Of a DNA stretch of 64,000 bases, positions 16,514-63,999 are shown in pieces (position 1 is the first letter of the stretch; every line of letters starts with the position of its first letter). The DNA is from an uncultured Actinomycetes bacterium (GTDB lineage: Bacteria > Chloroflexota > Dormibacteria > Aeolococcales > Aeolococcaceae): NCBI GenBank assembly GCA_964618935.1, contig CAZUDL010000008.1, positions 28,870-92,869 on the forward strand, read 5' to 3'. The translations under genes were made by a program, and so were the position numbers. The notes beneath the pieces were generated by a model, which was given only the letters and a program-made list of their open reading frames with translations, had not been told where the DNA came from and did no database searches.

Positions 16514-16516
16514 CTC

Positions 16517-23791: not shown

Positions 23792-23820
23792 GGTCGCCTC
23801 CAGTCCCGTGAAAGTTCTCA

Positions 23821-23833: not shown

Positions 23834-23947
23834 CGGGCCTGCCTCGGGCAAGAGGGGTGCCCCGCGCCCGGCCCACCCGGCACGGCCTCCGGGTTGCCCG
23901 TGGGCGCCCTGGCAAGGGTCTCTGACCCGCCGCATATAATTGTCCCC

Positions 23948-24433
23948 GTGACAAGGACCGGAGGGGGAGGGGGCCTCAGCCCCGAGGTGCGCGAGGTGCT
24001 GCGGGCCTATCTCGACGCCAGCCTCCTGAGCGACTCGCTGCAGGCCGATCTCTGGCGTGAGGCGCATCTGACGCTGGCCCAGCTGGCCGTGCTGCGCAAC
24101 CTCCGCGACGGCCGGCCGAGGCTCGCCGGCGAGCTGGCGGGGGCGGTGGGGCTGTCACCGGCGTCGGCGACGCGGCTCTTCGACCGCCTCGAGGAGCGGG
24201 GCCTGCTCCGCCGCCACCGGGGGCGGGACGACCGGCGCTGCGTGGAGATCCGCCTCACCGCCAGGGGGCGCCGACTGGTGGGGCCGTCACGTGCCCTGCG
24301 GAACAGCCCGCTCCGCCGCGCCGTCGAGGCCATGACCGAGGCCGAGCGGCGAAGCCTGGCGACGGCCCTGCAGCGGCTCGCCGAGACGGCGCGCCAGCTC
24401 GAGCTCCCGGCTCGTGGCGGGGCGATGCCGTGA
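23948..24433 (+). CDS. MarR-family regulator (probably leaderless)
   Basis: LTLAQLAVL, SPASATRLFDRLEERGLL, DDRRCVEIRLT; TATAAT (23935-23940) 7 nt before GTG. Confidence 0.9.
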   Translation: MTRTGGGGGLSPEVREVLRAYLDASLLSDSLQADLWREAHLTLAQLAVLRNLRDGRPRLAGELAGAVGLSPASATRLFDRLEERGLLRRHRGRDDRRCVEIRLTARGRRLVGPSRALRNSPLRRAVEAMTEAERRSLATALQRLAETARQLELPARGGAMP

Positions 24434-42563: not shown

Positions 42564-42570
42564 GCGAGCG

Positions 42571-43698
42571 TCAGGGGACGTAGATCGAGTCGATCGCGGC
42601 CGTGACGTTGGGGATCACGCTGGTGGGCAGCGCGACGAAGTTCTCCTTGGTCAGGTTGGCCGCGGTCGCGCCCCCGGTGGGGCTGATCGCCCAGGTGAGG
42701 AAGGTGCGGATGGCGAGAGCCGTCGGCAGCGCCGACTGGCCCTTGTGCAGCACCAGGTACTCGAAGTTGACGATGGGGTAGGAATCCGCGCCGGTCTCGT
42801 AGATGAGGGACTGACGGAGATCCTTGGGGACGTTGGTGGCGCCGGCGGCGACCGCCGCGTTGATGTCGTCAGCGGTGGGCAGCACGAAGTTGCCGGCCTG
42901 GTTCTCCAGGTTGACCTCTCCGAGGCCGTCAGTGATGGCCGTCGCCTCGACGCTGATGCCGATGTAGGCGATGCAGCCCGGTGTGCTCTGGCAGGTCGTC
43001 ACCATGGCCGGGTTGCCGCTGGCGGTCTGCTCGTTGCTCACGGAGGGCCAGGTGACCGTCGTGCCGAAGCTGGGGCCGCTCGACCAGGCGGCGTTGGTGG
43101 CGCTGAGGAACGAGGTGAAGATGAAGGTGTCACCCGACGAGTCGATGCGCCGCACCGGGACGATGGTCGTCGAGGGGAGCGTGACCCCGGGGTTGAGGGC
43201 GGCGATCGCCGAGTCGTTCCACTTGGTGATGCTGCCCTGGTAGATCTCGGCGATGACGTTGCCGCTCAGCTTGAGGTTGCTGACGCCGGGCAGGTTGTAG
43301 TTGATGGCCTGCGCGGACACGGCGATGGGGATGTTGAGGATGCCGGGGTACTCGGCCTCGGCGCCGTTGCTCAGGTAGGCGTCGGAGCCCCCCATGTTGA
43401 CGGCGCCCGTCTCGGCGTCACTCTGCCCCTTGCCCGAACCGCCGGCGGCCGGGCTGAGAGTGATGTTGGGGTAGGCGGTGTTGAGCGGCGTCTCCAGCTC
43501 CTCGAGGTAGGGGTAGAGGAGGCTCGATCCGTCCTCGGTGAGGGTCACCGGGCTGGTCGGATTGCCGGTGGCCACGGGTGTGGGTGTCGTGGTGGCGGTG
43601 GCGGCGGTGGTGCTGGAGTTGGATGCGCCACACGCGCTGACCAGCAGCGCAGCCACAACCGCCGCCGTACTGACAGCCGTGATCCGTCGAACGTTCAT
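42571..43698 (-). CDS. pstS: Phosphate-binding lipoprotein PstS
   Basis: Lipobox VSAC; DGSSLLYP, GGSGKG, GGSD, RIDSSGDT, YPIVNFEY; GGAGG RBS. Confidence 0.93.
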   Translation of the reverse strand: MNVRRITAVSTAAVVAALLVSACGASNSSTTAATATTTPTPVATGNPTSPVTLTEDGSSLLYPYLEELETPLNTAYPNITLSPAAGGSGKGQSDAETGAVNMGGSDAYLSNGAEAEYPGILNIPIAVSAQAINYNLPGVSNLKLSGNVIAEIYQGSITKWNDSAIAALNPGVTLPSTTIVPVRRIDSSGDTFIFTSFLSATNAAWSSGPSFGTTVTWPSVSNEQTASGNPAMVTTCQSTPGCIAYIGISVEATAITDGLGEVNLENQAGNFVLPTADDINAAVAAGATNVPKDLRQSLIYETGADSYPIVNFEYLVLHKGQSALPTALAIRTFLTWAISPTGGATAANLTKENFVALPTSVIPNVTAAIDSIYVP

Positions 43699-43756
43699 GA
43701 ACCTCCCCTTCAGATGGTGGGCGTTGAGACGGCAGATGAGGGCACGCCGCGCGTGC

Positions 43757-44554
43757 TCATCCGATCCGACCGCTGACGTAGGCCCGGCTCTTCTCATTGG
43801 CCGGGTCGTGGAAGAACGTCCTCGCCGACGTCGCCTCGACGACCTCTCCCGCGGTGAGGAAGACGACGTCGTCGCTGATGCGATTCGCCTGGGCGAGGTT
43901 GTGGGTGACGATGAGGACGGTGATCCGCTCCGAGATCCGCTTGATCAGCTCCTCGATGCGCTCCGTGCTGTCCGGGTCGAGCGCCGAGGTGGGCTCGTCG
44001 AGGAGGAGCACGCTGGGCGACAGTGCCAGGGCCCGGGCCAGGCAGAGCAGCTGCTGCTGGCCTCCCGACAGGCCGAAGGGCGAGGCATGAAGCCGGGCGG
44101 ACACGGCCGCCCACAGGCCCACCTCGGTGAGGCGCTCCTCGATCAGCTCCTGCACGCCGCGCCGGTTGACCATGCCGTGGGCACGCGGTGCCAGGCCGAC
44201 GTTCTCGCCGATGCTGCGCGGGAACGGGTTGGCGCGCTGGAAGAGCATGCCCACCCGCCGCCGGACCTCCCGGACGTTGACGTCCGGGCCGTAGATGTCG
44301 ACCCCCTCGACGACGACGGACCCCTTGACCCGCATGCCCTGGGTCTGATCGTGCATCCGGTTGATGGAGCGAAGCAGGGTGGTCTTGCCGCAGCCCGTGG
44401 GGCCGACGATGGCGGTGACCCGGTTGGGGCGGAACGTCGTGGTGATGCCCGAGAGGAGCGCCTTGTCGCCGAAGCGCACCGAGAGGTCGCGAACCTCCAC
44501 GCCCTCGGACACCTCCTCCCCCGCCGTGGAGAAGGCCACGTTGGTTAGCTCCAT
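43757..44554 (-). CDS. pstB: Phosphate ABC ATPase PstB
   Basis: GPTGCGKTT, FQRANPFP, LSGGQQQ, DEPTSALDP, VTHNLAQA; start uncertain. Confidence 0.92.
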   Translation of the reverse strand: MELTNVAFSTAGEEVSEGVEVRDLSVRFGDKALLSGITTTFRPNRVTAIVGPTGCGKTTLLRSINRMHDQTQGMRVKGSVVVEGVDIYGPDVNVREVRRRVGMLFQRANPFPRSIGENVGLAPRAHGMVNRRGVQELIEERLTEVGLWAAVSARLHASPFGLSGGQQQLLCLARALALSPSVLLLDEPTSALDPDSTERIEELIKRISERITVLIVTHNLAQANRISDDVVFLTAGEVVEATSARTFFHDPANEKSRAYVSGRIG

Positions 44555-44603
44555 GGACCTGGTGACCACGGGTCGAGCGTAGGGGCCGCCGTTTTGTGGG
44601 CGG

Positions 44604-44636
44604 GTTGCCCAAAGGTTAACAACTCGCTAACTCGCC
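44604..44636. promoter_or_regulatory. Pho-box-like array of three direct repeats at 11-nt period
   Basis: GTTGCC (44604), GTTAAC (44615), GCTAAC (44626), directly upstream of pstB. Confidence 0.6.
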
Positions 44637-44703: not shown

Positions 44704-46434
44704 TCAGGCCGGGGGCGGGGAGGGGTCGGCGCTGGCCGCGGCGATCGCCTCGCGGACGCCGTGGTGGATGTGGTCGGCGGCGACCAGGCCGAGGATGCCG
44801 TAGCGCTCGAGGACGTCCTGGATGTCCTCGACGTGGGCGAGGTGGACGGCGATGGCGCCGTGCCCGAGGTTGCGCAGGAGCGTCAGCAGCATCTGTCCGG
44901 CGGTGTAGTCGATGTCGGCGATGGCCGAGAAGTCGAACGCCATCCAGGTGACCCGGTGGGGGGCCGCCTCCACCAGGCTGAGGACGCGGCCGCGGAAGTG
45001 TTCGGCGTTGGCGAAGAAGAGGGTGCTGTCGAAGCGGTAGGCGACGCCGCCCGGCATGGTCTCGAGGCCGGGCCGGGCCCGATGAGGGACGAGCTGGCCC
45101 TCGGGGTCGGCGGCGGCCACGATCACCGTGTCGCGCGGCCGGTAGGCGCGGCGCACGAAGTCGAGGACGGAGAGGCCGACGGCAAGGATGATGCCGGCCT
45201 CCACGCCGACGAGCACGACCATCAGGCCGGTGGCGACGGCGAGGGCGAACTCGTCGCGCCGCAGATGCCAGAGTTCGACGAGGTGGCGGCGGTCGATGAG
45301 GTGGACGCCGATGACGAAGACCACGGCGGCCAGGGTCGCCTCGGGCAGGAAGTGGAGGAGGCCGGTGGCGACGACCAGCACGGCGATGGTGATGGCGCCC
45401 GCGACGAGCTGCGAGAGCTGGGTGCGCTGCCCGGCGGCATCGACGACCGCCGTCTTCGTCGGGCTGCCGTTGACGCAGAAGGTGCCGGTCAGCCCGGCCA
45501 CGAGGTTGGCCCCGGCCAGCCCCACCAGATCGCGGTTCTCGTTGAGGTCCTCGCCGTGCTTCTGCGCGAAGCTGCGGGCCGTCGCCGCGCTCTGGGCGAG
45601 GACGACGACGAAGATCGACGCCGCGACGCCGGCCAGGCCGGGAACCTGCTGCCAGGAGACCTTGGGGAAGGTCACCGGCGGGAGCCCGCCAGGCACCGCG
45701 CCGATGATGGCGACGCCATGCCGGTCCAGGCGCAGCACCGCCGTCAGCACGATCGAAGCGGCGACGACGAGGAGGGCGCCCGGGACGCGTTTGGCGAAGG
45801 CCTCGATCAGCAGCAGCGCGGCCACTCCGGCGATGGCGAGGAGGGCGGCGGGGACGACGATCTGACCGGCGTGCTGCGCCAGCGTGGTGAGCTGGGCGAT
45901 GAGGCTGCCGCTGGCGTGGATGCCCAGCATCCCCGGCAGCTGGGTGAGGGCGACCTGGATGCCGACGCCGCTGAGGAAGCCGATGAGGGCGGTGCGCGAC
46001 AGGAAGTCGGCGAGGAAACCGAGGCGCAGCAGCCGCGCCACCAGCAGGTATCCCGCCGCCAGCAGGGCGACGACACCGGCGAGGGCGACGTACTCCTTGC
46101 TCGCCGGCTTGGCCATGGTGACCAGGGCCGCGAACATGATGGCGGCGGTCGCCGAATCGGCGCCGACGACGAGGTGGCGCGATGAGCCGAGGAGGGCGAA
46201 GACGATCGCCGGCACGGCCAGGGTGTAGATGCCGGTGATCACCGGCATGCCCGCGATCTTGGTGTAGCCCATCGACTCGGGAATGGCCACGGCGGCCAGG
46301 GTGGCGCCGGCGATGACGTCGGCGAGGAGGGTGGCACGGCTCGAGCCGTTCAGCCCCTGCGCCAGGCCGAGGATGCGGTCGGGCATGGATCGATGCACGG
46401 GGGGCGGCGGCGTGTTCCTCACGACGGCGCCCAC
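44704..46434 (-). CDS. SulP/SLC26 anion transporter with STAS domain
   Basis: GATLAAVAIPESMGY, GSSRHLVVG, NRDLVGLAGAN, NGSPTKT, RFDSTLFFANA; start uncertain (46434-46386). Confidence 0.93.
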   Translation of the reverse strand: MGAVVRNTPPPPVHRSMPDRILGLAQGLNGSSRATLLADVIAGATLAAVAIPESMGYTKIAGMPVITGIYTLAVPAIVFALLGSSRHLVVGADSATAAIMFAALVTMAKPASKEYVALAGVVALLAAGYLLVARLLRLGFLADFLSRTALIGFLSGVGIQVALTQLPGMLGIHASGSLIAQLTTLAQHAGQIVVPAALLAIAGVAALLLIEAFAKRVPGALLVVAASIVLTAVLRLDRHGVAIIGAVPGGLPPVTFPKVSWQQVPGLAGVAASIFVVVLAQSAATARSFAQKHGEDLNENRDLVGLAGANLVAGLTGTFCVNGSPTKTAVVDAAGQRTQLSQLVAGAITIAVLVVATGLLHFLPEATLAAVVFVIGVHLIDRRHLVELWHLRRDEFALAVATGLMVVLVGVEAGIILAVGLSVLDFVRRAYRPRDTVIVAAADPEGQLVPHRARPGLETMPGGVAYRFDSTLFFANAEHFRGRVLSLVEAAPHRVTWMAFDFSAIADIDYTAGQMLLTLLRNLGHGAIAVHLAHVEDIQDVLERYGILGLVAADHIHHGVREAIAAASADPSPPPA

Positions 46435-46506
46435 TCTATCCTCGAACCCGGCCGGACGGGTGCAGACGCATCGCCCGCACGGGCGGCGCCGCGCGGGCCA
46501 TCCCTA

Positions 46507-46972: not shown

Positions 46973-48556
46973 CTACTTCTTGACGAAGATGACGGCGCCG
47001 TCGCCGTCGTCGGGGAAATGGACCTGGGTCCACTGGGGGTCGACCGAGAGCGCCATGGACAGAGACGAGTCCGGCCGCTCGATGACGTAGTCGATCTGGT
47101 GCTCGGCGAGGATCTGCTGCCAGTCGGGTTCGGCGTTCTCCACGTCGCTGATCTGCTGCACCAGCTGGTTGCCCATGAGGGTGGCCTCGCCGTAGATGAA
47201 CACGCGGCGGTCGGTGAGGGGGACGTAGCCGTTGCTCGCGGGGGAGAAACGGTAGGCGAGGTAGCCGCCCCAGTCGTAGGCGTTGAACATGTGGGTGCCC
47301 ACATCCGGGTGGGCCAGCAGCCAGTCGGCCGCCCCCTCCGGGAAGTTGGCGCTGGTGCTCGCCGCCTGGCCCTGGAGCGTGTCCACGACGACGGCGCCGG
47401 TCACCGCCACCGACAGCACAAGGGCGAACGTCGCCAGGACGGTGAGATCCTGCCGCCGCCGGTCGACGTAGGCGGCGAACCGGGGCTGCCAGGCGCTGGC
47501 GGTCCAGCCCCCGCCCAGCCCCCAGGCGATGACGGGGACGACGGCCGCGACGGCGATGGCGCCGTTGCGCACGGCGGCGAGTGCGAGGACCATGCTCGCC
47601 AGGGCGACGCAGACGTCCCAGAGGCGCTGCCGCCGCGCGGCCATCGCCCAGACGGTGAAGAGGAGCATCAGCCCCAGCCCCCACTCCTCGGGGGAGTGGA
47701 AGTTGGGCGACTTCCACTCGGCGATGAAGCTCTGCTGTGCCGAGCTGAACTGGATGTGCAGGGGGATGAGGTAGACGCTGATGGTGTGTGGGTTGATCAG
47801 GGCCGTCAGGAACGAGGCGCCCAGCACCACCCACAGGCCCAGCGCGCGCCGCCGCGTCGCCACCTTTTCGCCGGTGAAGGCCCAGCGGGCCGACTCGGTG
47901 ACGGCGGCGAGCCCGACGAAGAAGAGGCCGTACACGAACCCGCCGTGCAGGTTGGCCCAGATCACCATCACCGCGGGCAGCCAGAAGAGGCGGTGGCTGC
48001 GATCGCGGAGGTAGGCCTCGATCCAGTAGAGGGTCAGGCCGAGGAGGGCGAAGCTGATCATCTGCGAGCGCGGGCCCCAGACCGCAACCCCCGCCGCCGC
48101 CCCCACGAGCAGGGAGAGCGCGGCGATCAGGGGAGGGACGCGCTCCAGCGCGATGCGGCGCCAGATCAGCCACATGCCGGCCCAGATCACCGCCGTGTAG
48201 ACGAGGCTCACGGCGAGGAAGCTGCCGGCGCGGAAGACGAGGGCGAGGAGGATCTCGCTGCCCCACTCCTGGTCGGCCCACGAGTGGCCGCTCACCGTGT
48301 AGGTGAAGAGGTCGTGGGTGGGGAGTGTCCCGTGGGCGAGCATCCACTGGCCCGTCGCCAGGTGCCAGTAGAAGTCGGGGTCGCCGACCCTCCGGCAGAT
48401 CACCACCAGCACCCCGATCAGCGCCGCGGCGATGACCAGGCCGCCGATGCCGGGGCGGCGGAAGCGGCTCCAGGGCCTCGTGAGCGCGGGCGCCGTCTCC
48501 GGGGCTTCCGAGGCGGTCACACCTCCGCCGGTGGACGGCTCCTCTGCTGGTGGCAT
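46973..48556 (-). CDS. Polytopic membrane protein, putative GT-C glycosyltransferase
   Basis: DPDFYWHLATG in first loop, EWGSE, WANLHGGF, EWKSP, YDWGGYL; many TM helices; AGGAGG before ATG 48556. Confidence 0.65.
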   Translation of the reverse strand: MPPAEEPSTGGGVTASEAPETAPALTRPWSRFRRPGIGGLVIAAALIGVLVVICRRVGDPDFYWHLATGQWMLAHGTLPTHDLFTYTVSGHSWADQEWGSEILLALVFRAGSFLAVSLVYTAVIWAGMWLIWRRIALERVPPLIAALSLLVGAAAGVAVWGPRSQMISFALLGLTLYWIEAYLRDRSHRLFWLPAVMVIWANLHGGFVYGLFFVGLAAVTESARWAFTGEKVATRRRALGLWVVLGASFLTALINPHTISVYLIPLHIQFSSAQQSFIAEWKSPNFHSPEEWGLGLMLLFTVWAMAARRQRLWDVCVALASMVLALAAVRNGAIAVAAVVPVIAWGLGGGWTASAWQPRFAAYVDRRRQDLTVLATFALVLSVAVTGAVVVDTLQGQAASTSANFPEGAADWLLAHPDVGTHMFNAYDWGGYLAYRFSPASNGYVPLTDRRVFIYGEATLMGNQLVQQISDVENAEPDWQQILAEHQIDYVIERPDSSLSMALSVDPQWTQVHFPDDGDGAVIFVKK

Positions 48557-48791
48557 CCCGGTATCACCCTCCTGCGCGACGTCGGGGTGGAAACCCGCTT
48601 GTGCCCACCTCCGTCCTGACCCGCCCCCGCCCACGCCGACCGGTCTCGCCGGCACGGGAAGAGGCCGGGCAATGATACGGTCTGCGCCCTGGGCAGCCGT
48701 GACGGTCCGGCCCGGCCGGTAACCGCTCAGCAAGGTTGCGTGATGATGATGCCATTGGGCTCCGCCGGTCCCTCCCCGAGCTGAGGGCGGC

Positions 48792-50441
48792 GTGCCCGGC
48801 GCGGAGGCGACGGAGGACGCGGTGGGACTGTCCGGGAACCCGGGCGCGGCCGGTGCAGCCGCCTCGGGACGCCATCCCTCCCCCGTCTCCCGGAGCGACG
48901 GCCCGGCGACCTCCGGTGTGGCAGGGGGGTTCCGCAGGCGGCTCTGGCTGATCGGGCCCGCCGCACTCTACTGCGTTCTCCGCCTCCCCTCCTTCTTCGA
49001 GCCGCACTGGTACACGGACGAGGCGGGCTACGTCGCCACCGCCCGCTCCATGCTCCAGGGCAAGACCCTCTACACCCAGATCTGGAACAACAAGCCGCCC
49101 CTCCACCTGTGGACCGTCGCCCTGGTGATCAAGTTCCTCGGCACCAGCGAGGCGGCGCTCCACTCGCTCACCTTCGTGAGCGGGCTGCTGACCCTCGCCG
49201 CCGTCGCCTACGCGTGCGACCGGGTGCTCGGCCGGCGGCGGACCGCCATCGCCCTCCTCGTCGCGGCCGTTCTCCTGGGCACGCCGATCCTCGACGCGGA
49301 GCTGCTCCTCCCCGAGAGCCTGCTGATCGCCCCCGTCACCTGGGCCGGGGCGATCCTCCTCCGTCGCTTCGCCGCGCCGGACGAGCGGGACTGGCCCCGC
49401 TGGCCCATCGCGGTGGGGGCGCTCGTGGCCGTCGCCATCGCCTACCAGCAGACGGCCGTGGCGGAGGCCTGCGCCTTCGGTTTCATCCTGCTCGTCACGT
49501 CGCGCGGCAACTGGCGGCGCTTCGCCGCCTACGCCATCACGGTGTCGGCGCTGACCGTCGCCTGGCTGATCCCGACCGTCCTCTCCGCCGGGCTGTCCAC
49601 CGCCAGCTATGCCCTCGTCGGGTTCTACGTCCACTTCACCCAGGGCAACTTCGCCGGGACGGCCGGCCTCCTCCTGCACCTGGTCCCCATCGTCGTCGCC
49701 TTCTCCCTGCTGGTGCTGTGCGCATGGTTCCGCCGGCACGATCGCGACCCGACCTGGGCGCTCTGGTTCTGGGCCGGCGCCGCCCTGCTGGTCCCCTCCA
49801 TCGCCCGTCAGCCCTACCCCCACTACCTGCTCCCCTCCGCGGTGCCGGTGGCCATGGCCATCTGCAGCCTCCGCCCGCTCCGCAGCAGGGGCGTCAGCCT
49901 GACCCAGAGGCTGACCGCCGCCGGACTCATCGCCGGGACGGCCCTGGTCCTCCCCGCGGCCGCCGTCACCGGGTTCAACTGGATCCCCTGGCCGGGGATC
50001 TCAGACCTGAGCCTGGCCACCTACTACGGGGGCGCGGTCCTGGTCGCCACCGGTGCGCAGTCGGATCAGTCCTGGGAGAACGAGTTCGACCTGCGGGTCG
50101 GCGAGGACCGGGCGGCGGCCGACTGGATCACCGGCCACGGTCTCCAGGGCACCTCCGCCGTCATCTGGTCGGCCGACGCCTGGCTCTACTCGATCAGCGA
50201 CTTCACCGTCCTCATGCCGACCCCTCCCATCTACAACGACGCCCCGCTGCTGGGAGGCTGGGACGCCACAGCGCAGCGGGTGGCCTCGCTCGATCCCGTG
50301 GTCGTCGTCACCGAGGGGACGACGATCGCGTCCTACCCCCAGATCGAGCCCCTTCTCGCCAGCTCCTACCGGGCCTGTGAGCAGAACGGGTCCGAGATCG
50401 TCTGGGTGCGGGACGACGTCGCACAGGCGCTGCTCGGGTGA
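48792..50441 (+). CDS. ArnT/PMT-like (GT-C) membrane glycosyltransferase
   Basis: WYTDEAGY (DE motif), IWNNKPP, PHYLLP, many TM helices; start uncertain. Confidence 0.7.
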   Translation: MPGAEATEDAVGLSGNPGAAGAAASGRHPSPVSRSDGPATSGVAGGFRRRLWLIGPAALYCVLRLPSFFEPHWYTDEAGYVATARSMLQGKTLYTQIWNNKPPLHLWTVALVIKFLGTSEAALHSLTFVSGLLTLAAVAYACDRVLGRRRTAIALLVAAVLLGTPILDAELLLPESLLIAPVTWAGAILLRRFAAPDERDWPRWPIAVGALVAVAIAYQQTAVAEACAFGFILLVTSRGNWRRFAAYAITVSALTVAWLIPTVLSAGLSTASYALVGFYVHFTQGNFAGTAGLLLHLVPIVVAFSLLVLCAWFRRHDRDPTWALWFWAGAALLVPSIARQPYPHYLLPSAVPVAMAICSLRPLRSRGVSLTQRLTAAGLIAGTALVLPAAAVTGFNWIPWPGISDLSLATYYGGAVLVATGAQSDQSWENEFDLRVGEDRAAADWITGHGLQGTSAVIWSADAWLYSISDFTVLMPTPPIYNDAPLLGGWDATAQRVASLDPVVVVTEGTTIASYPQIEPLLASSYRACEQNGSEIVWVRDDVAQALLG

Positions 50442-55634: not shown

Positions 55635-56696
55635 TCAGCGCAGGGAGGAGGGGAGGGCTTCCGCGTCGGTGAGGCGGCGCGCCACGGTCACCGCGTCGTC
55701 GAAGAGGGCCTGCGCCCCGACGACGTTGGCCTCAGCGCCGGAGTGAGTGCTGACCCGGACGCCGTCGACGCCGTCCCGAACCCTCCCGCCCTCGCGGTCG
55801 TAGACAGGCTGGCCCGCCGGGTTGCGACCGTCGAACCACGCCCGGGCAGCGGTGGCACGTTCTGCGTACTCCGGTTCACCGGAGACCGCGGCCAGACGGC
55901 TCAGCACATGGACCGCGGAGGCGACGTCATAGGGTTGCGTCCGTGGCAGGTCGAAGCCGGACCTGACGGCCGCGCCGAACACCAGCTCCGCGCTGCGGCG
56001 GGCGACGTCGAGGAGGTCGGGCCGGCCCAGGTGCACTCCGACATCGGCGAGCACCCCCTCCTGGATGTGGCCCCAGAGATGAGGGTGGTTCCGCTCGTCG
56101 GGCGAGTTCATCAGCACACCGCCGGCGCGGCATCGCAGCAGCTCGTCGGTCCAGGGCCGCAGCAGCCCGTCGAGGCCGTGGGCGTTGCCCCCCTCCGACA
56201 GCACCAGCGCCGTTCGCAGGTGGAGTGCGCGCACGTCGGTGGGCACGTCCACGGCGGTCACCACATGGGGCAGGCCCGCTCGCAGTGCCGCATCGATCCG
56301 CGGATCGGTCAGGACCTGTGACGCTCGAGCCAGGGCGAGCAGGGCTCGAGCCTGCCAGAAGTCGCCGCCGGGACGGGACGTCCGCCCGCCCCGATTGGGA
56401 GTCCCCTGCCAATCGAGGATGAAGTTCAGCCAGCGCCCGTCGGCCTCCTGCATGGCGAGGACGAAGTCGAGCAGCCCCTCGCACCACCGCAACACCCAGG
56501 GCAGCCGTGTCGCCTCCCACAGATCGCAGTACAGCTCGAGGGCGCGCGCGGCGTCGTCGACACAGGCCACGCCCTCGTAGCCGGCCTCCCGGGCGCGAAG
56601 CGGTTCATCCCTCTCGTTGGCGTACACGGCGATGGCGATCCCGCTGCCGCCGGCGACCGGGACGCCGCGCCCCAGCCGGGCGAGCTGCCTCAGCAC
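55635..56696 (-). CDS. Uncharacterised alpha/alpha-toroid-like (six-hairpin glycosidase-like) protein
   Basis: EGVACVDDAARAL, MQEADGRWLNF, WFDGRNPAGQPVYD..GG.VRDG, SGAEA; overlaps the stop of the GT4-GH130 gene by 7 nt. Confidence 0.6.
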   Translation of the reverse strand: MLRQLARLGRGVPVAGGSGIAIAVYANERDEPLRAREAGYEGVACVDDAARALELYCDLWEATRLPWVLRWCEGLLDFVLAMQEADGRWLNFILDWQGTPNRGGRTSRPGGDFWQARALLALARASQVLTDPRIDAALRAGLPHVVTAVDVPTDVRALHLRTALVLSEGGNAHGLDGLLRPWTDELLRCRAGGVLMNSPDERNHPHLWGHIQEGVLADVGVHLGRPDLLDVARRSAELVFGAAVRSGFDLPRTQPYDVASAVHVLSRLAAVSGEPEYAERATAARAWFDGRNPAGQPVYDREGGRVRDGVDGVRVSTHSGAEANVVGAQALFDDAVTVARRLTDAEALPSSLR

Positions 56697-59092
56697 GGTT
56701 GCAGTTGATCGAGGATGTCCTGAACCCTGAAGTCCGCCGCGGCGAGGACCGCGTCGGCCGCCCCGTAGTAGACCCGGATGCTCTCGCCCGCAGCATCCAG
56801 CGGGACGTGGCCGCAGGCGAAGACGACGTCGTTGAAGACACCGCTGCGTTCGTAGCCGGCGGTCGGCACCAGGATCGGTTCCGGCGACCGGGCGAGGACG
56901 TGAGCGGGATTGTCGGCGTCGAGCAGCAGCCCCCCGAGCGCGTAGCGGGTGTTGCGATCGACCCCGTGGTAGATCTCCAGCCAGCCGCCCGGGACGCGGA
57001 AGGGGACCGCACCGGCGCCGGTGCGCAACTCGTCCCACATGCCGGGGCGGGGCAGCGCCAGCGGGGCGTGGTCCCCCCAGTGGACGAGGTCGTCGGAGAA
57101 CGCGATCCACATGCCGAGGACCCGGCCGAAGGACTGCGGCATGGGACGCGTGAAAGCGGCGAAGCGGCCGCCGGTGCGGCCGGGAAAGAGCACCACGTCC
57201 TTGTGGTCGGGCAGGAAGAGGATCCCATGGCGCTCGAACGACCGGAAGTCGGTCGTGGTCAGGCGGCTGGTGGTCACTCCCAGACGGCTCACCGACACGT
57301 ACGTGATGTGCCAGACGCCGTCGATGAGCGTCGCCCGGGGGTCCTCGCAGCCGTACTCCTCGAAGCGGTTCTCGGGGACCAGGGCCGGCTTCTCCTCCAC
57401 CTCGAAGTGGACTCCGTCGCGGCTCCTCGCCACACGGAGATGCGACATCTGGGTGAGGAAGTCGCTGACGTCGTCGGCCGCCGCGGTGAAGCCCCCGGTG
57501 AGGTTGCGGTAGCGGATGGACCGCGGGTCGCTGAGGTCGAGCCCGGGCGTGTCCCGGGGGATGAACACCTCGACGACGCGGGCCGGCTGGTGCTCGGAGT
57601 CGAGCAGGGCGATGGCGATGACGTCCTCGGCGCCGAAGCCCGGGCCCAGGGGCTTGAGCTCCGGCTCCGGGCGCGACAGGTCGAGGGTGAGCGCGTCCGC
57701 CGGGGGGACGGTGCCGGCCGACGGGCGTTCACCGACGCGCAGCAGCAGCACCACCTCGCCGTCCACGCGCGCCGCCGCGGCGTTGAAGACGGAGACGACC
57801 TCCAGGCCGGGCAGCGATGGGCGGACGTCGGACGGGCGCAGGATGGGGTTCTCACGCAGCCGGCGCCCCAGGTCGGCGTCGGGGTCCGCCGGTCGGGCTG
57901 CACGCCGCTGGAGCGGCGGGGTCCGGACCACCTCCTCCATGACGTCGAGGAAGGCCCGCGCCGAGCGCGGCCAGGTCGCGTCGTGGGCGTAGGCGAAGGC
58001 CGCCCGCTCCAGGGACTGCTTCGTCGCCGGCTCGCTCAGGATGGTCGATACGGCGCGTCCCAGCTGCAAGGGATCACGGAAGTCGACGAGGACTCCGCGT
58101 CCGTCGCTCAGCGCCTCGCGGGCATGCAGGTAGCGCGTCGACACCACCGCCTTGCCGGCGCCCAGCGCGTAGGAGAGCGTCCCGCTGGTGATCTGGTTGG
58201 GATCGAGATAGGGGGTCACGTAGACGTCGGTGGCGAGCAGCAGTTCGATGATGTCGGGCTGGCTCATGTAGGTGTCGATGAAGGCCACGTGGTCGTCCAG
58301 GCCCAGCTCGTGCGTCTTCGCCACCAGGGCGTTGCGATAGGTCTCGCCCTGTGCCCGCAGCAGATCGGGGTGGGTCTGGCCGGCGATGAGGTAGAGCGCG
58401 CCGGGATGCGCTTCCAGCACCGCCGGCATGCCCTCGATCATGTACTCGAGACCCTTGCGCGGGTCGACCAGGCCGAAGGTCGAGATCAGCGGGCGACCCT
58501 CCACGCCGAGCTTGCGCTTGAAGCGCACCCTGCCGTGCGGCTGGATCACCGGCATGCCGTGGGGGATGACCCGGGGAGGCTTGGCCAGTCCGTAGTCCAT
58601 GGACAGCAGGTCGATGGCGGTGGACGCCATGACGATGACCTCGTCGCTGAGGTCGGCGATGGCGCGCACCGCCGTCCGGATCGACGCCGACGGCTTGGGG
58701 AGGACCGTGTGCATGGTCGTCACCACCGGCTTGCGCAACTCCTCAAGGAAGAGATGGAGGTTGTCCTCGTAGGCGCCGTCGGTCCAGTGGCCGGCGATGA
58801 ACTTCGATTCCGTCCACGTGCCGTAGAGACCGAACTCGTGCTGCACGTTGACGGCGTCGGCATTCGAGGCGTTGATCGATCGCGCCGCCGCGCGGTAGCT
58901 CTCGGGGTCGCCCTGGCGGATCCGCCAGCGGACCTCGGAGGCGTACGGCCGCCGCACCGTGGGCTCCTCGATGGCGGCGATCCGGCAGGTCGTGGTGGGA
59001 TCGCTGGTGCGCACCGCGGCGATGAGGTCGGCGCAGAACGTGGCGATGCCGCAGCGGCGGGGCACGGCGGAGGAGACGAAGGCGATGCGCAT
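56690..59092 (-). CDS. GT4 glycosyltransferase - GH130 mannoside phosphorylase fusion
   Basis: N-half: PRRCGIATF, QHEFGLYG, GLVDPRKGLE, TSGTLSYA; C-half: ENPIL, VFNAA, EDPR, KDVVLFP, TRP, RTGAG, YHG, VVFACG, YYGAAD; one 800-aa ORF. Confidence 0.87.
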   Translation of the reverse strand: MRIAFVSSAVPRRCGIATFCADLIAAVRTSDPTTTCRIAAIEEPTVRRPYASEVRWRIRQGDPESYRAAARSINASNADAVNVQHEFGLYGTWTESKFIAGHWTDGAYEDNLHLFLEELRKPVVTTMHTVLPKPSASIRTAVRAIADLSDEVIVMASTAIDLLSMDYGLAKPPRVIPHGMPVIQPHGRVRFKRKLGVEGRPLISTFGLVDPRKGLEYMIEGMPAVLEAHPGALYLIAGQTHPDLLRAQGETYRNALVAKTHELGLDDHVAFIDTYMSQPDIIELLLATDVYVTPYLDPNQITSGTLSYALGAGKAVVSTRYLHAREALSDGRGVLVDFRDPLQLGRAVSTILSEPATKQSLERAAFAYAHDATWPRSARAFLDVMEEVVRTPPLQRRAARPADPDADLGRRLRENPILRPSDVRPSLPGLEVVSVFNAAAARVDGEVVLLLRVGERPSAGTVPPADALTLDLSRPEPELKPLGPGFGAEDVIAIALLDSEHQPARVVEVFIPRDTPGLDLSDPRSIRYRNLTGGFTAAADDVSDFLTQMSHLRVARSRDGVHFEVEEKPALVPENRFEEYGCEDPRATLIDGVWHITYVSVSRLGVTTSRLTTTDFRSFERHGILFLPDHKDVVLFPGRTGGRFAAFTRPMPQSFGRVLGMWIAFSDDLVHWGDHAPLALPRPGMWDELRTGAGAVPFRVPGGWLEIYHGVDRNTRYALGGLLLDADNPAHVLARSPEPILVPTAGYERSGVFNDVVFACGHVPLDAAGESIRVYYGAADAVLAAADFRVQDILDQLQPC

Positions 59093-60261: not shown

Positions 60262-60603
60262 ATGGACCTCGCCGAGCTGCTCAGATCGCACGCCCGCCGC
60301 TATCGCTGCGCCCAGTGTGGAGGCAACATGGCGGACTGCGGCATCAACGTGATCGCCCAGCAGGGCAACCGCGCCCTGGTCCGTGTCACCTGCCCCACCT
60401 GCAACGACGAGAACCTCCTCCAGATCATCTTCCAGACCGAGGCCGACGCATCGGCGGGAGAGGCGCGGGAGGCGTCCGGCGCCACCCTCGACGAGGGCTA
60501 CCCGGCCGTGGACGGGCCCATCACCGGCGACGAGGTCCTGGAGGTCCACGAGTTGCTGGCGGGCCACGCCGGCAGCCTCGGCGAGCTGCTGGCCCGGCGC
60601 TGA
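60262..60603 (+). CDS. 113-aa Zn-ribbon (CxxC...CxxC) hypothetical protein, probably leaderless
   Basis: CAQC, CPTC, acidic C-terminus PITGDEVLEVHELL; TATACT 7 nt before ATG. Confidence 0.75.
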   Translation: MDLAELLRSHARRYRCAQCGGNMADCGINVIAQQGNRALVRVTCPTCNDENLLQIIFQTEADASAGEAREASGATLDEGYPAVDGPITGDEVLEVHELLAGHAGSLGELLARR

Positions 60604-60648: not shown

Positions 60649-61434
60649 TCACCCAGGCCGGTTCGCCGCCTCCCTCCTGGTGGGCAGCGACCGGCGGATC
60701 CGAAGGCGGAAGACGAAGAGCTCCTTGATGGCGCGGGCGATGGCCCGCGGCCGGGCGCCGGACCGCCGCCCCGCCACCCGGGGGTGATGGGGGATGGGGG
60801 CCTGGGCGATGCGCCAGCCCGCGTAGCGCGCCTTGTAATAGAGCTCGGCGTTGATCAGGGCGCTGCGCGCCTCCAGGGTGAGGGAGTCGAGAACCTCGCG
60901 GCGCATCAGCTTGAGGGCGCAGTCGACGTCCCGGTAGGGGAGCCGGTAGAGGATGGCGACCAGGGTGTTGAAGATCCAGCTCACGACCTCGCGGGCGCGG
61001 GCGTCCTTGCGCTTCTCCCGCCATCCCGCCGCCAGGTCGGCGCGGTCCAGCAGCGGGACGAGGCGGGCGAGGTCGGCGATCTCGAACTGTCCGTCGGCGT
61101 CGGTGAAGGCGACGAAGTCACCGGTGGCGGCGCGCAGGCCGTCCCCCACCGTGGCGCCGTAGCCGCTCTTCTGCGCGTGGCGAACGATGGTGAGCCGCAT
61201 CCCCAATTCGGCCGCCAGGGCGGTGGCGGCGGGGCCGCTGCCGTCGGTGCTGCCGTCGTCGACGATGACGATGTCGTGGCGGCTGGCGAGCGTCGGCAGG
61301 ACCTCCGCGGCGTGGGGCAGCAGCCAGCGGAGGTTCTCCACCTCGTTGTGGACGGGGAGCACCAGCGTCAGGCCGCTGAGGAGCGGCCCGGCCGGTTGCC
61401 CGGCGGGCTCACCCTCGGATCGCGCGGCGGTCAC
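60649..61434 (-). CDS. GT2 glycosyltransferase, DPM1/polyprenol-phosphate glycosyltransferase-like
   Basis: LPVHNEVENL, IVDDGSTDGS, GYG, FTDADGQF, DVDCALKLMRR; GTGA overlap with sqdB. Confidence 0.88.
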   Translation of the reverse strand: MTAARSEGEPAGQPAGPLLSGLTLVLPVHNEVENLRWLLPHAAEVLPTLASRHDIVIVDDGSTDGSGPAATALAAELGMRLTIVRHAQKSGYGATVGDGLRAATGDFVAFTDADGQFEIADLARLVPLLDRADLAAGWREKRKDARAREVVSWIFNTLVAILYRLPYRDVDCALKLMRREVLDSLTLEARSALINAELYYKARYAGWRIAQAPIPHHPRVAGRRSGARPRAIARAIKELFVFRLRIRRSLPTRREAANRPG

Positions 61435-62642
61435 CGCGTGGGGGCGGTGGCCAGCGGCGGAGCGGCCGGCTCCCCGGTGTAGAGGCCGCCGCCCTTGCGC
61501 CAGTCGACCTTGGCGTCCACGGTGTTCCGCCGGACCCGGTGGATGTTGCCCTCCACCGTCTGGACGACGCTGTCGATCAGCGTGTCGCTCAGCGAGTGCG
61601 GCTCCAGGCCGAGGTCGAGGAGGTGCTGGTGCTTCGCGTTGTAGTAGTGCTCCTCCTTCTCCCGGCGCGGGTTCTCGACGTGGTGGATCGTCGTCGGCAG
61701 GCCGTGGGCGGCGCGGGCGTGGGCCACCTTCTCCGCAAGTCCCAGTACGGAGAACTGCTCGGTGAACTGGTTGTAGACGCGGTACTCGCCCGCCGCGGGC
61801 GGGTTGAGGGCCGCCAGCTCGACGCAGCGCACCGTGTCCCGGATGTCGAGGAAGCCCCTGGTCTGCCCGCCCTTGCCGTAGACGCTGAGCGGCTCGCCGA
61901 TGGCCGCCTCCACGCAGTAGCGGTTGAGGACCGTGCCCCAGATGCCGTCGTAGTCGAACCGCGTGGTCAGGTCGGGATGCAGCGCGGTCTCTGCGGTGGT
62001 GATGCCGTAGACGACCCCCTGGTTCAGGTCGGTGGCCCGGAGATCCCAGATGCGGCAGCCGAAGTCGAGGTTGTGGCTGTCGTGCACCTTGGAGAGGTGG
62101 TAGACGGACCCGGGCTGTTTCGGGTAGAGCATGCGGTCGTGGCGCCCGTTGTGGTCGACCTCGAGGAAGCCCTCCTCGATGTCGATGTTCGGGGTGCCGT
62201 ACTCGCCCATCGTGCCCAGCTTGATGAGATGGCAGTGGGGGGCGCGATCCCGCAGGGCATAGAGGAGACGGAGGGTGCCGACGACGTTGTTGACCTGGGT
62301 CTCCACGCCGTGCCGGGGGCTGATCATCGAGTACGGGGCGGACCGCTGCTCGGCGAAGTGGACGACGGCATCGGGTGGGGAGGCGCCGATCAGCTCGTCG
62401 AGGGCCCCCTCGTCGCAGAGGTCGAGCTCGTGCCATTCGATGGTCCGCCCGCTCACCTCGTGCCAGCGGGCCAGGCGCTCCGGCATGGAGGCGATGGCCA
62501 CCAGGCTGTCGGTGCCGCACTCGATGTCCCAGTGCCGGCGGACCAGGCTGTCGACGGCCACGACGTCATGCCCGCGGGCGGACAGGTGCAGAGCCGTCGG
62601 CCATCCGAGGTATCCGTCGGCACCAAGGACCACGATGCGCAT
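61431..62642 (-). CDS. sqdB: UDP-sulfoquinovose synthase
   Basis: GADGYLGWPTALHLS, HFAEQRSAPYSMI, KLGTMGEYGTPNIDIEEG, YHLSKVHDSHN, ATDLNQGVVYG, TVLNRYC. Confidence 0.93.
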   Translation of the reverse strand: MRIVVLGADGYLGWPTALHLSARGHDVVAVDSLVRRHWDIECGTDSLVAIASMPERLARWHEVSGRTIEWHELDLCDEGALDELIGASPPDAVVHFAEQRSAPYSMISPRHGVETQVNNVVGTLRLLYALRDRAPHCHLIKLGTMGEYGTPNIDIEEGFLEVDHNGRHDRMLYPKQPGSVYHLSKVHDSHNLDFGCRIWDLRATDLNQGVVYGITTAETALHPDLTTRFDYDGIWGTVLNRYCVEAAIGEPLSVYGKGGQTRGFLDIRDTVRCVELAALNPPAAGEYRVYNQFTEQFSVLGLAEKVAHARAAHGLPTTIHHVENPRREKEEHYYNAKHQHLLDLGLEPHSLSDTLIDSVVQTVEGNIHRVRRNTVDAKVDWRKGGGLYTGEPAAPPLATAPTR

Positions 62643-62644
62643 CC

Positions 62645-63607
62645 TCAGATCTCCCCGTGAACCGGCCTGGAGGCGGCCGCTGATGGCGATGGGCGCTCGG
62701 CGAAGTACCGGTAGGTCTCCGCGAGCCCCTGCTCGAGGGAAGTGTGCGACTCCCAGCTGAGACGTTGCTGAGCCCGGCCGCTGTCCAGGCAGGCCCGCGC
62801 CACCTCCCCCGGCCGGGCGGGCAGGAGTTCGGGCTCGAGGGACAGCCCCGACGCCCGGATGAGCTCGCCGACGACGGCGCGGACGCTGGTCTCCCGGCCG
62901 GTGCCCACGTTGACCGGCCCGCTCTCCGTCGCCGACAGCGCCGCCCGGGTGGCCCGGGCGATGTCGCCGACGTAGACGAAGTCGCGGGTCTGGAGGCCGT
63001 CGCCGTAGATGACCGGCCGCAGCCCCTGGGTCAGCCGGGTGGCCGAGATGGCCACCACGCCGGCCTCGCCGGTGCCGTCCTGGCGCGGCCCGTACACGTT
63101 GCCGTAGCGCAGGGCGATGGTGCGCAGGCCCCGGCGGCGGTAGGTCCAGAGGTAGGTCTCCTCGCACAGCTTCTCGGCACCGTAGGCGGACATGGGCGCC
63201 GGAGGCAGCTCCTCGGCGGCGGGGAGCCGCTCCGCCTCGCCGTAGATGGCCCCGCCCGAGGAGGCGATGACGATGGTCCCGCATCCCGCCCGTGCCGCCG
63301 CCTCGAAGCAGCCGACCGAGCTGGCGAGGACCCGGTGAACGTGGTCGCCGGGGTCGCGGAGCGCCCGGTTGACACCGCCCTTGGCGGCGAGATGGACCAG
63401 GGTCTCGGGTTTGAAGCGGAGCAGTGCCTCGGCCGCCTCGGAGCCGCCGGCGTCCGCGACCAGCATCTCCGCCGCGCCCGGGAGGCTGGCGCCGCAGGGA
63501 TGGGAGAGATCGTCGATGACCAGCACGTCCAGCCCGTCCGAGGCCAGCATCTCGACGAGGTGGCTGCCGATGAACCCGGCGCCACCGACCACCGCAACTC
63601 GCGTCAT
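62645..63607 (-). CDS. NAD-dependent epimerase/dehydratase (UDP-glucose 4-epimerase-like)
   Basis: GGAGFIGSH, SSGGAIYG, YGAEK, RYGNVYGPRQ, TRDFVYVGD. Confidence 0.88.
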   Translation of the reverse strand: MTRVAVVGGAGFIGSHLVEMLASDGLDVLVIDDLSHPCGASLPGAAEMLVADAGGSEAAEALLRFKPETLVHLAAKGGVNRALRDPGDHVHRVLASSVGCFEAAARAGCGTIVIASSGGAIYGEAERLPAAEELPPAPMSAYGAEKLCEETYLWTYRRRGLRTIALRYGNVYGPRQDGTGEAGVVAISATRLTQGLRPVIYGDGLQTRDFVYVGDIARATRAALSATESGPVNVGTGRETSVRAVVGELIRASGLSLEPELLPARPGEVARACLDSGRAQQRLSWESHTSLEQGLAETYRYFAERPSPSAAASRPVHGEI

Positions 63608-63999
63608 GCGTCGCCGTCGATCGGAATCCGCGGACGTCCCAGGATGAGGATGCCCAGGGCGCCGGCGATGCCCAGCGGAAGCGTCGTGGCCAGGCGGAGC
63701 AGGATGGTGACCGCGGCGGCGCTGACGGCGCCGAGACCGGCCGCGGTCAGCAGGCTGATGACCACGACGTCGGTGGCGCCCAGACCGAAGGGGAGGGTGG
63801 AGACGCTGCCCGCGACCTGCGAGAGGCAGTAGGCCGACACCGCGACCCACAGGGCCAATCCGGCTCCGACCCCCCAGGCGAGGAGAAGGATCTGGAAGCC
63901 GCTGAGCAGGAAGACGCCCAGGGTCAGCGCGGTGAAGACGACGGCCACCCGGAACGACAGGCCGAGATCCTGGAGCCGGACGGTGGCGCGCAGAGCTCC
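63604..63999 (-). CDS. UPF0104 / LPG-synthase-TM membrane protein, 3' part only (start off-window)
   Basis: STLPFGLGATD, AVTILLRLATTLP; ATGA overlap with the epimerase. Confidence 0.65.
   Translation of the reverse strand, partial: GALRATVRLQDLGLSFRVAVVFTALTLGVFLLSGFQILLLAWGVGAGLALWVAVSAYCLSQVAGSVSTLPFGLGATDVVVISLLTAAGLGAVSAAAVTILLRLATTLPLGIAGALGILILGRPRIPIDGDA

Follow-up and report, generated by a model that had tools for sequence, protein, structure and literature searches.

We examined a window of 64,000 nucleotides, by which we mean the whole analysed stretch of contig CAZUDL010000008.1 (positions 28,870 to 92,869), from an uncultured bacterium of the Dormibacteria. Near its 3' end lies an operon in which sqdB, the gene of a UDP-sulfoquinovose synthase, is joined to genes for a UPF0104 membrane protein, a GalE-like epimerase and a family 2 glycosyltransferase (GT2). 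This operon probably belongs to a Dormibacterota-wide glycosylation module acting outside the cytoplasmic membrane, in which a polyprenyl-phosphate-linked sugar would be handed on by a glycosyltransferase of the GT-C type. As for the cargo of the module, we lean towards sulfoquinovose or one of its derivatives; the statement as a whole, module and cargo together, we hold to be evenly balanced between right and wrong. Somewhat more tentatively still, polyprenyl-phosphate sulfoquinovose (or its 4-epimer, formed by the epimerase of the operon) could be an undescribed donor, from which Dormibacterota, by means of an ArnT/PMT-like GT-C, would put a permanently anionic, sulfonated sugar on an acceptor outside; some Actinomycetota and Nitrospinota might do likewise. 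The genes in question are the following:

>63999..63604, minus strand: 3' end of the UPF0104/LPG_synthase_TM gene (C-terminal 131 codons and the stop; the start lies off the window)
63607..62645, minus strand: GalE-like epimerase of the short-chain dehydrogenase/reductase (SDR) type, 320 amino acids (aa), assigned from Pfam, NCBIfam and solved relatives
62642..61431, minus strand: sqdB, UDP-sulfoquinovose synthase (predicted SQD1 ortholog), 403 aa, assigned from the alignment with SQD1
61434..60649, minus strand: GT2 of the polyprenyl-phosphate type, 261 aa, GTG start, assigned from sequence and predicted fold
48792..50441, plus strand: predicted GT-C membrane glycosyltransferase (PMT_2/GT39-83-like, ArnT-like), 549 aa, assigned from profile and predicted fold

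The window has a G+C content of 72%, and mechanical listings of open reading frames (ORFs) were crowded by spurious frames; the real genes at 60649-63999 were picked by a frame plot of third-position GC (GC3) together with translation. The four genes found there are co-directional, in the order UPF0104, epimerase, sqdB, GT2. A preliminary description of this DNA had claimed that they are tightly joined, and this was confirmed: the UPF0104 stop and the epimerase start share an ATGA overlap, a 2-nt gap (GG) separates the epimerase stop from the ATG of sqdB, and the sqdB stop and the GT2 start share a GTGA overlap. The gene identities given in that description were likewise borne out by domain calls. 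Since the gene 3' of GT2 (60328..60603, plus strand) is convergent, GT2 is the last gene of the operon. Neither terminator nor promoter consensus sequences were detected near the end of the operon, which is no surprise at 72% GC.

The 5' end of the operon was recovered from other contigs. An exact look-up of the SqdB sequence returned 16 contigs, and the four-gene unit is carried by six loci with identical SqdB; in all six, the UPF0104 gene (359-364 aa) comes first, and 5' of it lie some 490 bp of non-coding DNA and then a divergent aldo-keto reductase gene. One of the six contigs belongs to the metagenome-assembled genome GCA_050014315.1 of NCBI. An identical gene order was present in four related species (loci L007-L010). 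The occurrence of the unit on six independent public contigs and in four related species argues for a real operon rather than a chance arrangement of ORFs. The nearest homologs and loci carry the labels Candidatus Dormibacteria, Dormibacteraeota or Dormiibacterota, and peat is the source of many of them.

Judged by full-length similarity and catalytic residues, SqdB is a bona fide ortholog of UDP-sulfoquinovose synthase. It aligned with Arabidopsis SQD1 (1qrr/1i24) at 499 bits, over 384 residues without a gap and with about 60% identity, and the aligned motifs comprise GADGYLG (the N-terminal GxxGxxG NAD motif), GTMGEYG (T145) and YHLSK (Y182, H183, K186). Thr145, Tyr182, His183 and Lys186, so numbered, we take to be the catalytic residues of SQD1. 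NCBIfam model NF041015 was matched over its full length with 464 bits, short of the 575 set as equivalog cut-off, and relatives of the protein are named UDP-sulfoquinovose synthase by JGI. The epimerase encoded upstream scored 160.8 bits on Pfam Epimerase and 145 bits on NCBIfam GalE, the latter under the curated cut-off of 262; among solved structures, it came closest to short UDP-glucose 4-epimerases (4zrm, 2p5u and 7ys8, 203-180 bits). It contains the motifs SSGG..YG and YGAEK (YxxxK), a Ser/YxxxK pattern that presumably marks a 4-epimerase and not a 4,6-dehydratase.

By sequence, motifs and predicted fold, GT2 is an anchor-less polyprenyl-phosphate glycosyltransferase, in agreement with the class proposed for it earlier. 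It matched Pfam Glycos_transf_2 with 83 bits, and its best solved relatives by sequence were ArnC, the dolichyl-phosphate mannose synthase (DPMS) of P. furiosus and GtrB. PpgS was among the top NCBIfam matches (47.8 bits), with low identity to PpgS/GacI-type enzymes. The AlphaFold2 (AF2) model, built from a 30-homolog alignment, reached a predicted local distance difference test score (pLDDT) of 87 and a predicted template modelling score (pTM) of 0.85. When it was compared with solved structures by Foldseek, ranks 1-25 were all occupied by ArnC, DPMS or GtrB (E 5e-16 to 2e-10, template modelling (TM) score 0.53-0.74), and glucosyl-3-phosphoglycerate synthases ranked next (E ~4e-10). The family motif DADxQ is represented by 112-DADGQF-117, aligned to residues 100-105 of ArnC; the reference motifs are 94-DADLQD in GtrB, 100-DADLQN in ArnC and 89-DADLQH in DPMS. 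In the HMMER alignment, R139 and R148 fall on ArnC R128 and R137, which have been proposed to hold undecaprenyl phosphate (PMC12690121). Residues 112-117 (DADGQF), R139 and R148 were invariant in 30 homologs. Hydropathy analysis of GT2 detected no hydrophobic (transmembrane) segment, and its C-terminus is modelled by AF2 as a long basic amphipathic helix (residues 229-249). GacI, PpgS and human DPM1 have no transmembrane anchor either. GacI was found at the membrane even without GacJ (bioRxiv 10.1101/180810).

The first gene of the operon clearly encodes, to judge from its profile matches, a polytopic membrane protein of the UPF0104/LPG_synthase_TM family (the flippase domain of MprF, 'PplT', COG0392). 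The fragment in the window scored 28.2 bits on PF03706, below threshold alone, and also matched TIGR00374 ('flippase-like domain'). The full-length protein from the identical contig L001 reached 120.5 bits on PF03706 (cut-off 33.4) and 75.7 on TIGR00374 (cut-off 43.2). Its hydropathy profile contains 7-8 hydrophobic segments. We know of no member of the family for which flipping of a polyprenyl-phosphate sugar has been demonstrated. Translocation by UPF0104 proteins is backed by experiment for MprF only, and it is a prediction for GpgF, HexF and the C-domain of AglD (PMC12713373, PMC10128005, PMC5898192); in archaeal AglD-type systems, UPF0104 has been predicted to serve as flippase of a glycosylation pathway (Makarova et al. 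2015, PMC5898192).

Conservation of the gene neighbourhood was examined with sqdB as the starting point. When one genome per GTDB species was scanned, 80 sqdB loci were obtained, in which ORFs were called and clustered and recurrent families annotated; 33 of these loci, all from different species, form the Dormibacterota-type set (L007-L040 minus L037). In all 31 Dormibacterota loci that are not truncated, a GT2 ortholog (40-82% identity) was located no more than about 2 kb from sqdB, and the two loci without it (L020, L023) lie on contigs that end just beyond sqdB. UPF0104 genes, belonging to two divergent subfamilies that both match PF03706, were present in 28 of the 33 loci and orthologs of the GalE-like epimerase in 27. 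One or more GT-C-type genes, 0.1-3.1 kb from sqdB, were found in 26. These GT-C-type genes fall into two PMT_2 families, DUF2079 and one family without a Pfam match. The arrangements vary between sub-lineages and include i) a same-strand operon like that of the window, ii) GT2 convergent to sqdB, and iii) an sqdB-GT2-GT-C-GT-C operon in L030-L038, where sqdB and GT2 abut (0 nt between alignment ends). Such varied gene order and orientation indicates that the association of sqdB with GT2 has been kept through rearrangement. Loci L015 and L017 possess sqdB, GT2 and GT-C, with neither epimerase nor UPF0104 in the locus. No Dormibacterota sqdB was encountered apart from the module (31 of 31 untruncated loci), a pattern expected if the module were the sole consumer of the SqdB product.

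The GT-C gene of the window probably encodes the extracytoplasmic transferase of the module. The protein scored 37.4 bits on Pfam PMT_2 (cut-off 26.1), and no fewer than 7 hydrophobic segments were counted in it. In alignments of about 490-570 residues, it shows 41-49% identity with the GT-C encoded beside sqdB-GT2 in 14 Dormibacterota loci, where the ortholog is mostly found within about 1 kb of the gene pair (2.5 kb in L016 and 7.2 kb in L028); identity with the GT-C portion of a GT2::GT-C fusion (see below) falls in the same range. The divergence of GT-C between the window and its relatives parallels that of UPF0104. In one relative, the ortholog sits in a chromosomal region syntenic with the window. 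The AlphaFold model (pLDDT 80) had ArnT as its best match in the Protein Data Bank (PDB; E 1e-6, TM score 0.52), followed by AglB, STT3, AftB, Pmt4 and PimE, and the significant matches were GT-C enzymes only. D76-E77 of the first loop (EPHWYTDEAGY) was invariant in 28 homologs.

Two other polytopic proteins of the window might be of the GT-C type as well. One is a 664-aa product of an ORF divergent from the module GT-C (46973..48967, minus strand), which matched neither Pfam nor NCBIfam and is no conserved neighbour of sqdB elsewhere; the other, encoded near the window start (8121-9503, plus strand), is weakly PMT_2/PIG-V-like.

A direct connection between the two glycosyltransferases was provided by gene fusion. 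Three homolog clusters (P0313, P0322 and P0325) represent 760-aa fusions of GT2 with a PMT_2 GT-C. The GT2 half of P0313 shares 41% identity with its counterpart in the window (E 1e-47), and the P0313 gene (L172, 7001-9283) starts 35 nt 3' of an sqdB which is 67% identical to that of the window. A UPF0104 gene is located upstream, and an epimerase gene downstream, of this sqdB and the fusion. Being a Rosetta-stone fusion directly behind sqdB, it places GT2 and GT-C in one pathway.

Pairing of sqdB with GT2 genes was also detected in other phyla. In L061 and L077 (Actinomycetota) and in L082 (Nitrospina), all three from metagenome-assembled genomes, sqdB adjoins genes for DUF2304(GacJ)-GT2 fusions of 350-358 aa, in which the DUF2304 domain is N-terminal and the GT2 motif reads DADGQ. 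DUF2304 is the family of the small membrane proteins GacJ and Rv3632. These bind to GacI and PpgS, which are sugar synthases acting on undecaprenyl phosphate or decaprenyl phosphate, and stimulate them; in some cases synthase and DUF2304 protein are fused (bioRxiv 10.1101/180810). The pairing of sqdB with a GT2 of the polyprenyl-phosphate type is thus not the synteny of a single lineage. Locus L077 additionally contains, upstream, genes for a MATE/Wzx-like protein and for an unannotated protein of 501 aa.

In other bacteria, sqdB was accompanied by different transferases. A SqdX-like GT4 was found beside it in four non-Dormibacterota loci (Caldilineaceae, Chloroflexaceae, Gaiellaceae). In Terriglobia/Acidobacteriaceae/Bryobacteraceae (L064, L067, L080, L081, L084), a GT21 gene lies 8-285 nt from sqdB; the GT21 scored 307 bits on the model of HpnI, the bacteriohopanetetrol glucosamine glycosyltransferase (cut-off 310), and this acidobacterial pairing hints at a sulfoquinovose-hopanoid or another lipid distinct from sulfoquinovosyl diacylglycerol (SQDG). 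In delta-proteobacterial and Binatia metagenome-assembled genomes (L049, L051, L053, L056), sqdB is found among GT2 genes and 3-4 sulfotransferase genes (Sulfotransfer_1/3), which suggests loci for heavily sulfated or sulfonated polysaccharides.

The preliminary description saw no SqdX-type GT4 or sqdC/D, with the operon start off the window, and expected its scheme to fail if sqdX lay just upstream and SQDG were the only product. On the identical contigs that supply the operon start, no sqdX was present 5' of the operon, up to the divergent aldo-keto reductase gene. Four sqdB-adjacent SqdX-like GT4s, known as such by family and adjacency only (NCBIfam has no SqdX model), served as tblastn queries against the window and some 600 kb of Dormibacterota loci, and no match reached E<1e-6. 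The locus of the window and related loci yielded neither an SqdX/SQD2-type GT4 nor SqdD. The only qualification is a GT4-GH130 fusion of 800 aa (59092..56690, minus strand), located 1.56 kb 3' of the operon on the same strand. As a hidden SqdX it was rejected: BLASTP against a SqdX-like GT4 gave E=0.07, and its GH130 half resembles beta-1,2-mannobiose phosphorylases.

Taken together, the following mechanism can be proposed. SqdB, an enzyme by homology, would convert UDP-glucose and sulfite into UDP-sulfoquinovose. At the cytoplasmic face, GT2 would move the sugar, with inversion, from UDP onto polyprenyl phosphate, UDP-sulfoquinovose being the donor suggested by the strict gene linkage. The lipid-linked sugar would then be flipped by the UPF0104 protein and passed by the ArnT/PMT-like GT-C, whose role is indicated by fold and linkage, to an acceptor; a protein, a wall polymer or a lipid could serve as such. 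The GalE-like epimerase may be a second supplier of nucleotide sugar for GT2, by interconversion of UDP-Gal and UDP-Glc or by 4-epimerisation of UDP-sulfoquinovose. SqdB itself would be an accessory of the module, and a clade that lacks sqdB (described below) presumably delivers a neutral hexose. Essentially the same route, with sulfoquinovose loaded on polyprenol phosphate, flipped and transferred by GT-C enzymes, had been put forward in the preliminary description. The class of GT2 stood, and the participation of GT-C gained from the GT-C genes near sqdB-GT2 in most Dormibacterota, from the fusion and from the ArnT-like ortholog in the window; flipping is a step that we infer, and the cargo was left unsettled by the clade without sqdB.

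Several observations weigh against this scheme. The UPF0104 flippases that have been characterised or proposed (MprF, GpgF, HexF) act on glycerolipids, the GT-C of the window lies outside the operon at a distance of 10.2 kb, and polyprenyl-phosphate-sulfoquinovose was not described in the literature that we searched. The most serious point emerged from the GT2 side. As a sample based on sqdB is biased to sqdB by construction, GT2 homologs were also collected by exact-protein look-up, and five of five homologs with 61-67% identity (L087, L088, L169, L170, L171) belonged to a module with no sqdB within 6-7 kb. The layout of these loci is [~712-aa secreted protein][PMT_2 GT-C][GT2][epimerase][UPF0104]. 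Moreover, no residue conserved in at least 85% of 32 sqdB-linked GT2s was altered in the five sqdB-less ones. From an intact module without local sqdB and an unchanged GT2, it follows that the module is not obligatorily specific for sulfoquinovose; GT2 may accept donors besides UDP-sulfoquinovose, or may make no use of it. Position 203 was considered as a specificity residue: the five sqdB-less GT2s all have Q there, and 25 of the 32 sqdB-linked ones have R or H. It is not decisive, for Q also occurs in four sqdB-linked GT2s. A metagenome scan started from the GT2 alignment hit generic GT2 motifs, with 79 of 80 loci distant (25-38% identity) and L092 alone informative.

The history of the sqdB-less clade puts these findings into perspective. 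In a neighbour-joining tree, the five GT2s form a single clade nested within sqdB-linked GT2s, with L015, L017 and L092 as sisters. In L087 the alignments of GT2 and epimerase are 37 nt apart, and L092 has the same layout with sqdB filling exactly this position. One loss of sqdB would be the simplest history. Together with the sqdB-GT2-GT-C trio of L015 and L017, the clade suggests that sqdB and the epimerase behave as alternative suppliers of nucleotide sugar around a GT2/GT-C core. A GT2 tolerating either OH or SO3- at C6 would fit the linkage and the sqdB-less clade alike. Given L015 and L017, and the pattern expected of a module that is the only consumer of the SqdB product, the sqdB-less clade undercuts the sulfoquinovose reading only so far. 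The module of this clade is always accompanied by a conserved secreted protein of 706-715 aa (no Pfam match) and a short-chain dehydrogenase. The conserved protein of about 712 aa encoded 3' of GT-C in relatives matched no Pfam family and had no homolog in the window.

Among other explanations, the one that survives best assumes that the module always carries a neutral hexose (Gal or Glc, provided by the epimerase), and that SqdB is only co-located or co-regulated and feeds an unlinked SqdX/SQD2-like SQDG transferase. The sqdB-less clade, whose GT2 shows no signature substitutions, is readily accommodated in this way. In the mycobacterial PpgS locus, GalE-like Rv3634c acts as a UDP-sugar 4-epimerase. 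A UDP-hexose epimerase, a polyprenyl-phosphate glycosyltransferase and a GT-C are self-sufficient in PpgS/Rv3634c/Rv3779 and in Pgf, and several cyanobacteria have sqdB and sqdX unlinked (PMC13436972). We nevertheless consider this explanation unlikely, as it would have to account for sqdB linked to GT2 in all 31 untruncated loci through rearrangement and never found elsewhere, and for the sqdB/GT2 overlap (translational coupling) of the window and the 0-nt abutment in L030-L038. It would also have to account for the lack of an epimerase in L015 and L017 beside sqdB, GT2 and GT-C, for the GT2::GT-C fusion directly 3' of sqdB, and for the separate pairing of sqdB with GacJ-GacI-type fusions in two other phyla; furthermore, no SqdX-like GT4 was found in the Dormibacterota sequences searched.

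A second possibility, which we regard as quite improbable, is that GT2 sulfoquinovosylates a glycerolipid, diacylglycerol (DAG) or phosphatidylglycerol (PG), directly, and that UPF0104 flips the resulting anionic, possibly phosphorus-sparing lipid to the outer leaflet, GT-C being unrelated. All UPF0104 proteins with genetic or biochemical data serve glycerolipid head-group pathways, GT2 is anchor-less, and a Pst/PhoU cluster and a SulP permease are encoded less than 25 kb away. The enzymes of MprF/GpgSDF/HexSDF-type systems are, however, of the GT-B fold, whereas GT2 is a GT-A enzyme with polyprenyl-phosphate relatives that has kept the arginines for the carrier phosphate. Nor would GT-C be expected as a linked gene in 26 of 33 loci and as a fusion partner of GT2 in one lineage, or GT2 and GT-C without UPF0104 in L015 and L017. 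Least probable is a soluble sulfoquinovoside, which GT2 would form much as GpgS does (with 3-phosphoglycerate or glycerol phosphate, for example) and which would serve as a compatible solute or as a precursor acylated later: glucosyl-3-phosphoglycerate synthases are the next-best folds (E ~4e-10, with a weak NCBIfam match of 34.8 bits) and a rhizobial sulfoquinovosyl-glycerol route to SQDG is proposed in one preprint (bioRxiv 10.1101/2022.08.18.504050), but the polyprenyl-phosphate glycosyltransferase fold matches six orders of magnitude better, with the DADxQ and arginine signatures, and the conserved flippase-like and GT-C partners and the GT2::GT-C fusion would be left unexplained.

Two further ideas from the preliminary description, a hopanoid as acceptor of the sugar and a phosphorus-sparing role of the product, found no support. 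They concern these features of the window:

15482..16516, minus strand: HpnH-like radical SAM/DUF3463 protein
16517..18583, minus strand: squalene-hopene cyclase
19877..21985, minus strand: protein with two SQS_PSY domains
22700..24154 (given for the polyprenyl synthase), minus strand: type-2 isopentenyl diphosphate isomerase (IDI)-like flavin mononucleotide (FMN) enzyme and polyprenyl synthase
24430..25428, plus strand: UPF0104 paralog, in tandem with the next, directly after the hopanoid-type cluster
25557..26573, plus strand: UPF0104 paralog with weak HpnL similarity
within 39907-46503, plus strand: phoU
40655..44626, minus strand: pstSCAB
44704..46503, minus strand: SulP/STAS sulfate permease

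As for hopanoids, the cluster is about 35 kb from the operon, and no linkage of both clusters was seen in 39 related loci; the HpnA, HpnB and HpnL models, tried on the operon proteins, remained far below their cut-offs. The window contains three UPF0104 genes in all. As for phosphorus, pst/phoU lie 16-24 kb from the sqdB operon (14-24 kb with SulP included), and the pst/phoU/SulP arrangement near sqdB is not conserved in other genomes. The region 5' of the operon (L001, 4480-5010) contained no Pho-box-like repeat; the scan turned up GC-rich hairpins and, within the gene start, a single repeat of 8 nt. A glycan decoration delivered by way of a phosphate carrier would bring no obvious sparing of phosphorus.

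Some neighbours of the operon may be mentioned as well. The convergent small ORF at 60328-60603 (plus strand) has CxxC...CxxC zinc-ribbon-like motifs. Between the operon and the GT4-GH130 gene (59132-59876, minus strand), a weakly PhdYeFM-antitoxin-like gene of 87 aa and a gene of 141-163 aa without assignment were found. The GT4-GH130 protein itself is an unusual fusion of synthase and phosphorylase, and its gene has a 7-nt overlap with that of a 353-aa protein without a family match (56696..55635, minus strand).

Sulfoquinovose is viewed almost solely as the head group of SQDG in phototrophs, with the N-glycan of Sulfolobus as the one well-known exception. In full-text literature searches, no paper was found which joins sulfoquinovose with Dormibacterota, nor one which describes sulfoquinovose on undecaprenyl, polyprenyl or dolichyl phosphate outside the context of the Sulfolobus N-glycan. 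A 2026 review of bacterial sulfoquinovose cycling gives SqdB-SqdX/SQDG as the biosynthetic route (PMC13436972). The association of sqdB with a polyprenyl-phosphate GT2 and GT-C thus appears to be undescribed in the literature searched, the three-component logic itself being well known. If the proposed route for sulfoquinovose exists, the paradigm of GT2, flippase and GT-C would be extended by a new lipid-linked donor and a new sugar, and UPF0104 proteins would gain a testable role as flippases of polyprenyl-phosphate sugars. Dormibacterota, an abundant uncultured phylum of soil and peat, would possess a sulfonated component of the cell surface, and this would constitute a terrestrial, non-photosynthetic and non-SQDG pool of sulfoquinovose (in soils and peat) for sulfoglycolytic recyclers. 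The variants of the module with and without sqdB offer a natural comparison for donor specificity.

In comparison with known systems, the module is close to the periplasmic systems GtrA/GtrB with a third Gtr protein (O-antigen glucosylation) and ArnC/ArnE-F/ArnT and to the Citrobacter pentofuranose system (PMC11127046), in which, as is proposed here, a GT2 loads polyprenyl phosphate, a small membrane protein flips the product and a GT-C carries out the transfer. GT2 of the window shares with GtrB and ArnC the (predicted) fold, DADxQ and the arginines, and the predicted fold of the window GT-C is nearest to ArnT. Unlike GtrB and ArnC, which have two C-terminal transmembrane helices, GT2 has none. 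The putative donor, UDP-sulfoquinovose, is not known from any system of this type; the putative flippase is a UPF0104 (MprF-domain) protein, whereas theirs is GtrA, SMR or MATE, and the GT-C of the window is encoded outside the operon. PpgS (Rv3631)/Rv3632/Rv3779 and GacI/GacJ/GacK/GacL (bioRxiv 10.1101/180810) similarly combine an anchor-less GT2 of about 230-260 aa with a GT-C. They carry GalNAc or GlcNAc, however, and the Dormibacterota GT2 has a UPF0104 neighbour instead of a DUF2304 partner.

From the side of sulfoquinovose, the SqdB/SqdX (SQD1/SQD2) pathway has in common with the operon a close SQD1 ortholog, but the linked transferase here is a GT2 of the polyprenyl-phosphate type. With Sulfolobus Agl3, the operon would share delivery of the sugar to a glycoconjugate other than SQDG, which in Sulfolobus is an N-glycan linked to dolichyl diphosphate; to our knowledge, a dolichyl-phosphate-sulfoquinovose intermediate has not been reported there. 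From the side of UPF0104, a stand-alone member encoded together with a lipid-modifying glycosyltransferase is found also with MprF, gpgSDF (PMC12713373) and hexSDF (PMC10128005), whose transferases are GT-B enzymes (GT4/MGDG-synthase-like) acting on PG or glycolipids and are accompanied by deacetylases and by no GT-C partner. Archaeal AglD-type synthases of dolichyl-phosphate hexoses (PMC5898192) combine, as the module does, GT2, UPF0104 (fused or neighbouring) and a PMT/STT3-like GT-C; their carrier is dolichol, their sugar mannose or another hexose, SqdB is absent, and the flippase role is a prediction there as well. The module would thus be a lipid-carrier glycosylation system of the three-component kind, for which both the candidate sugar and the candidate flippase family are new.

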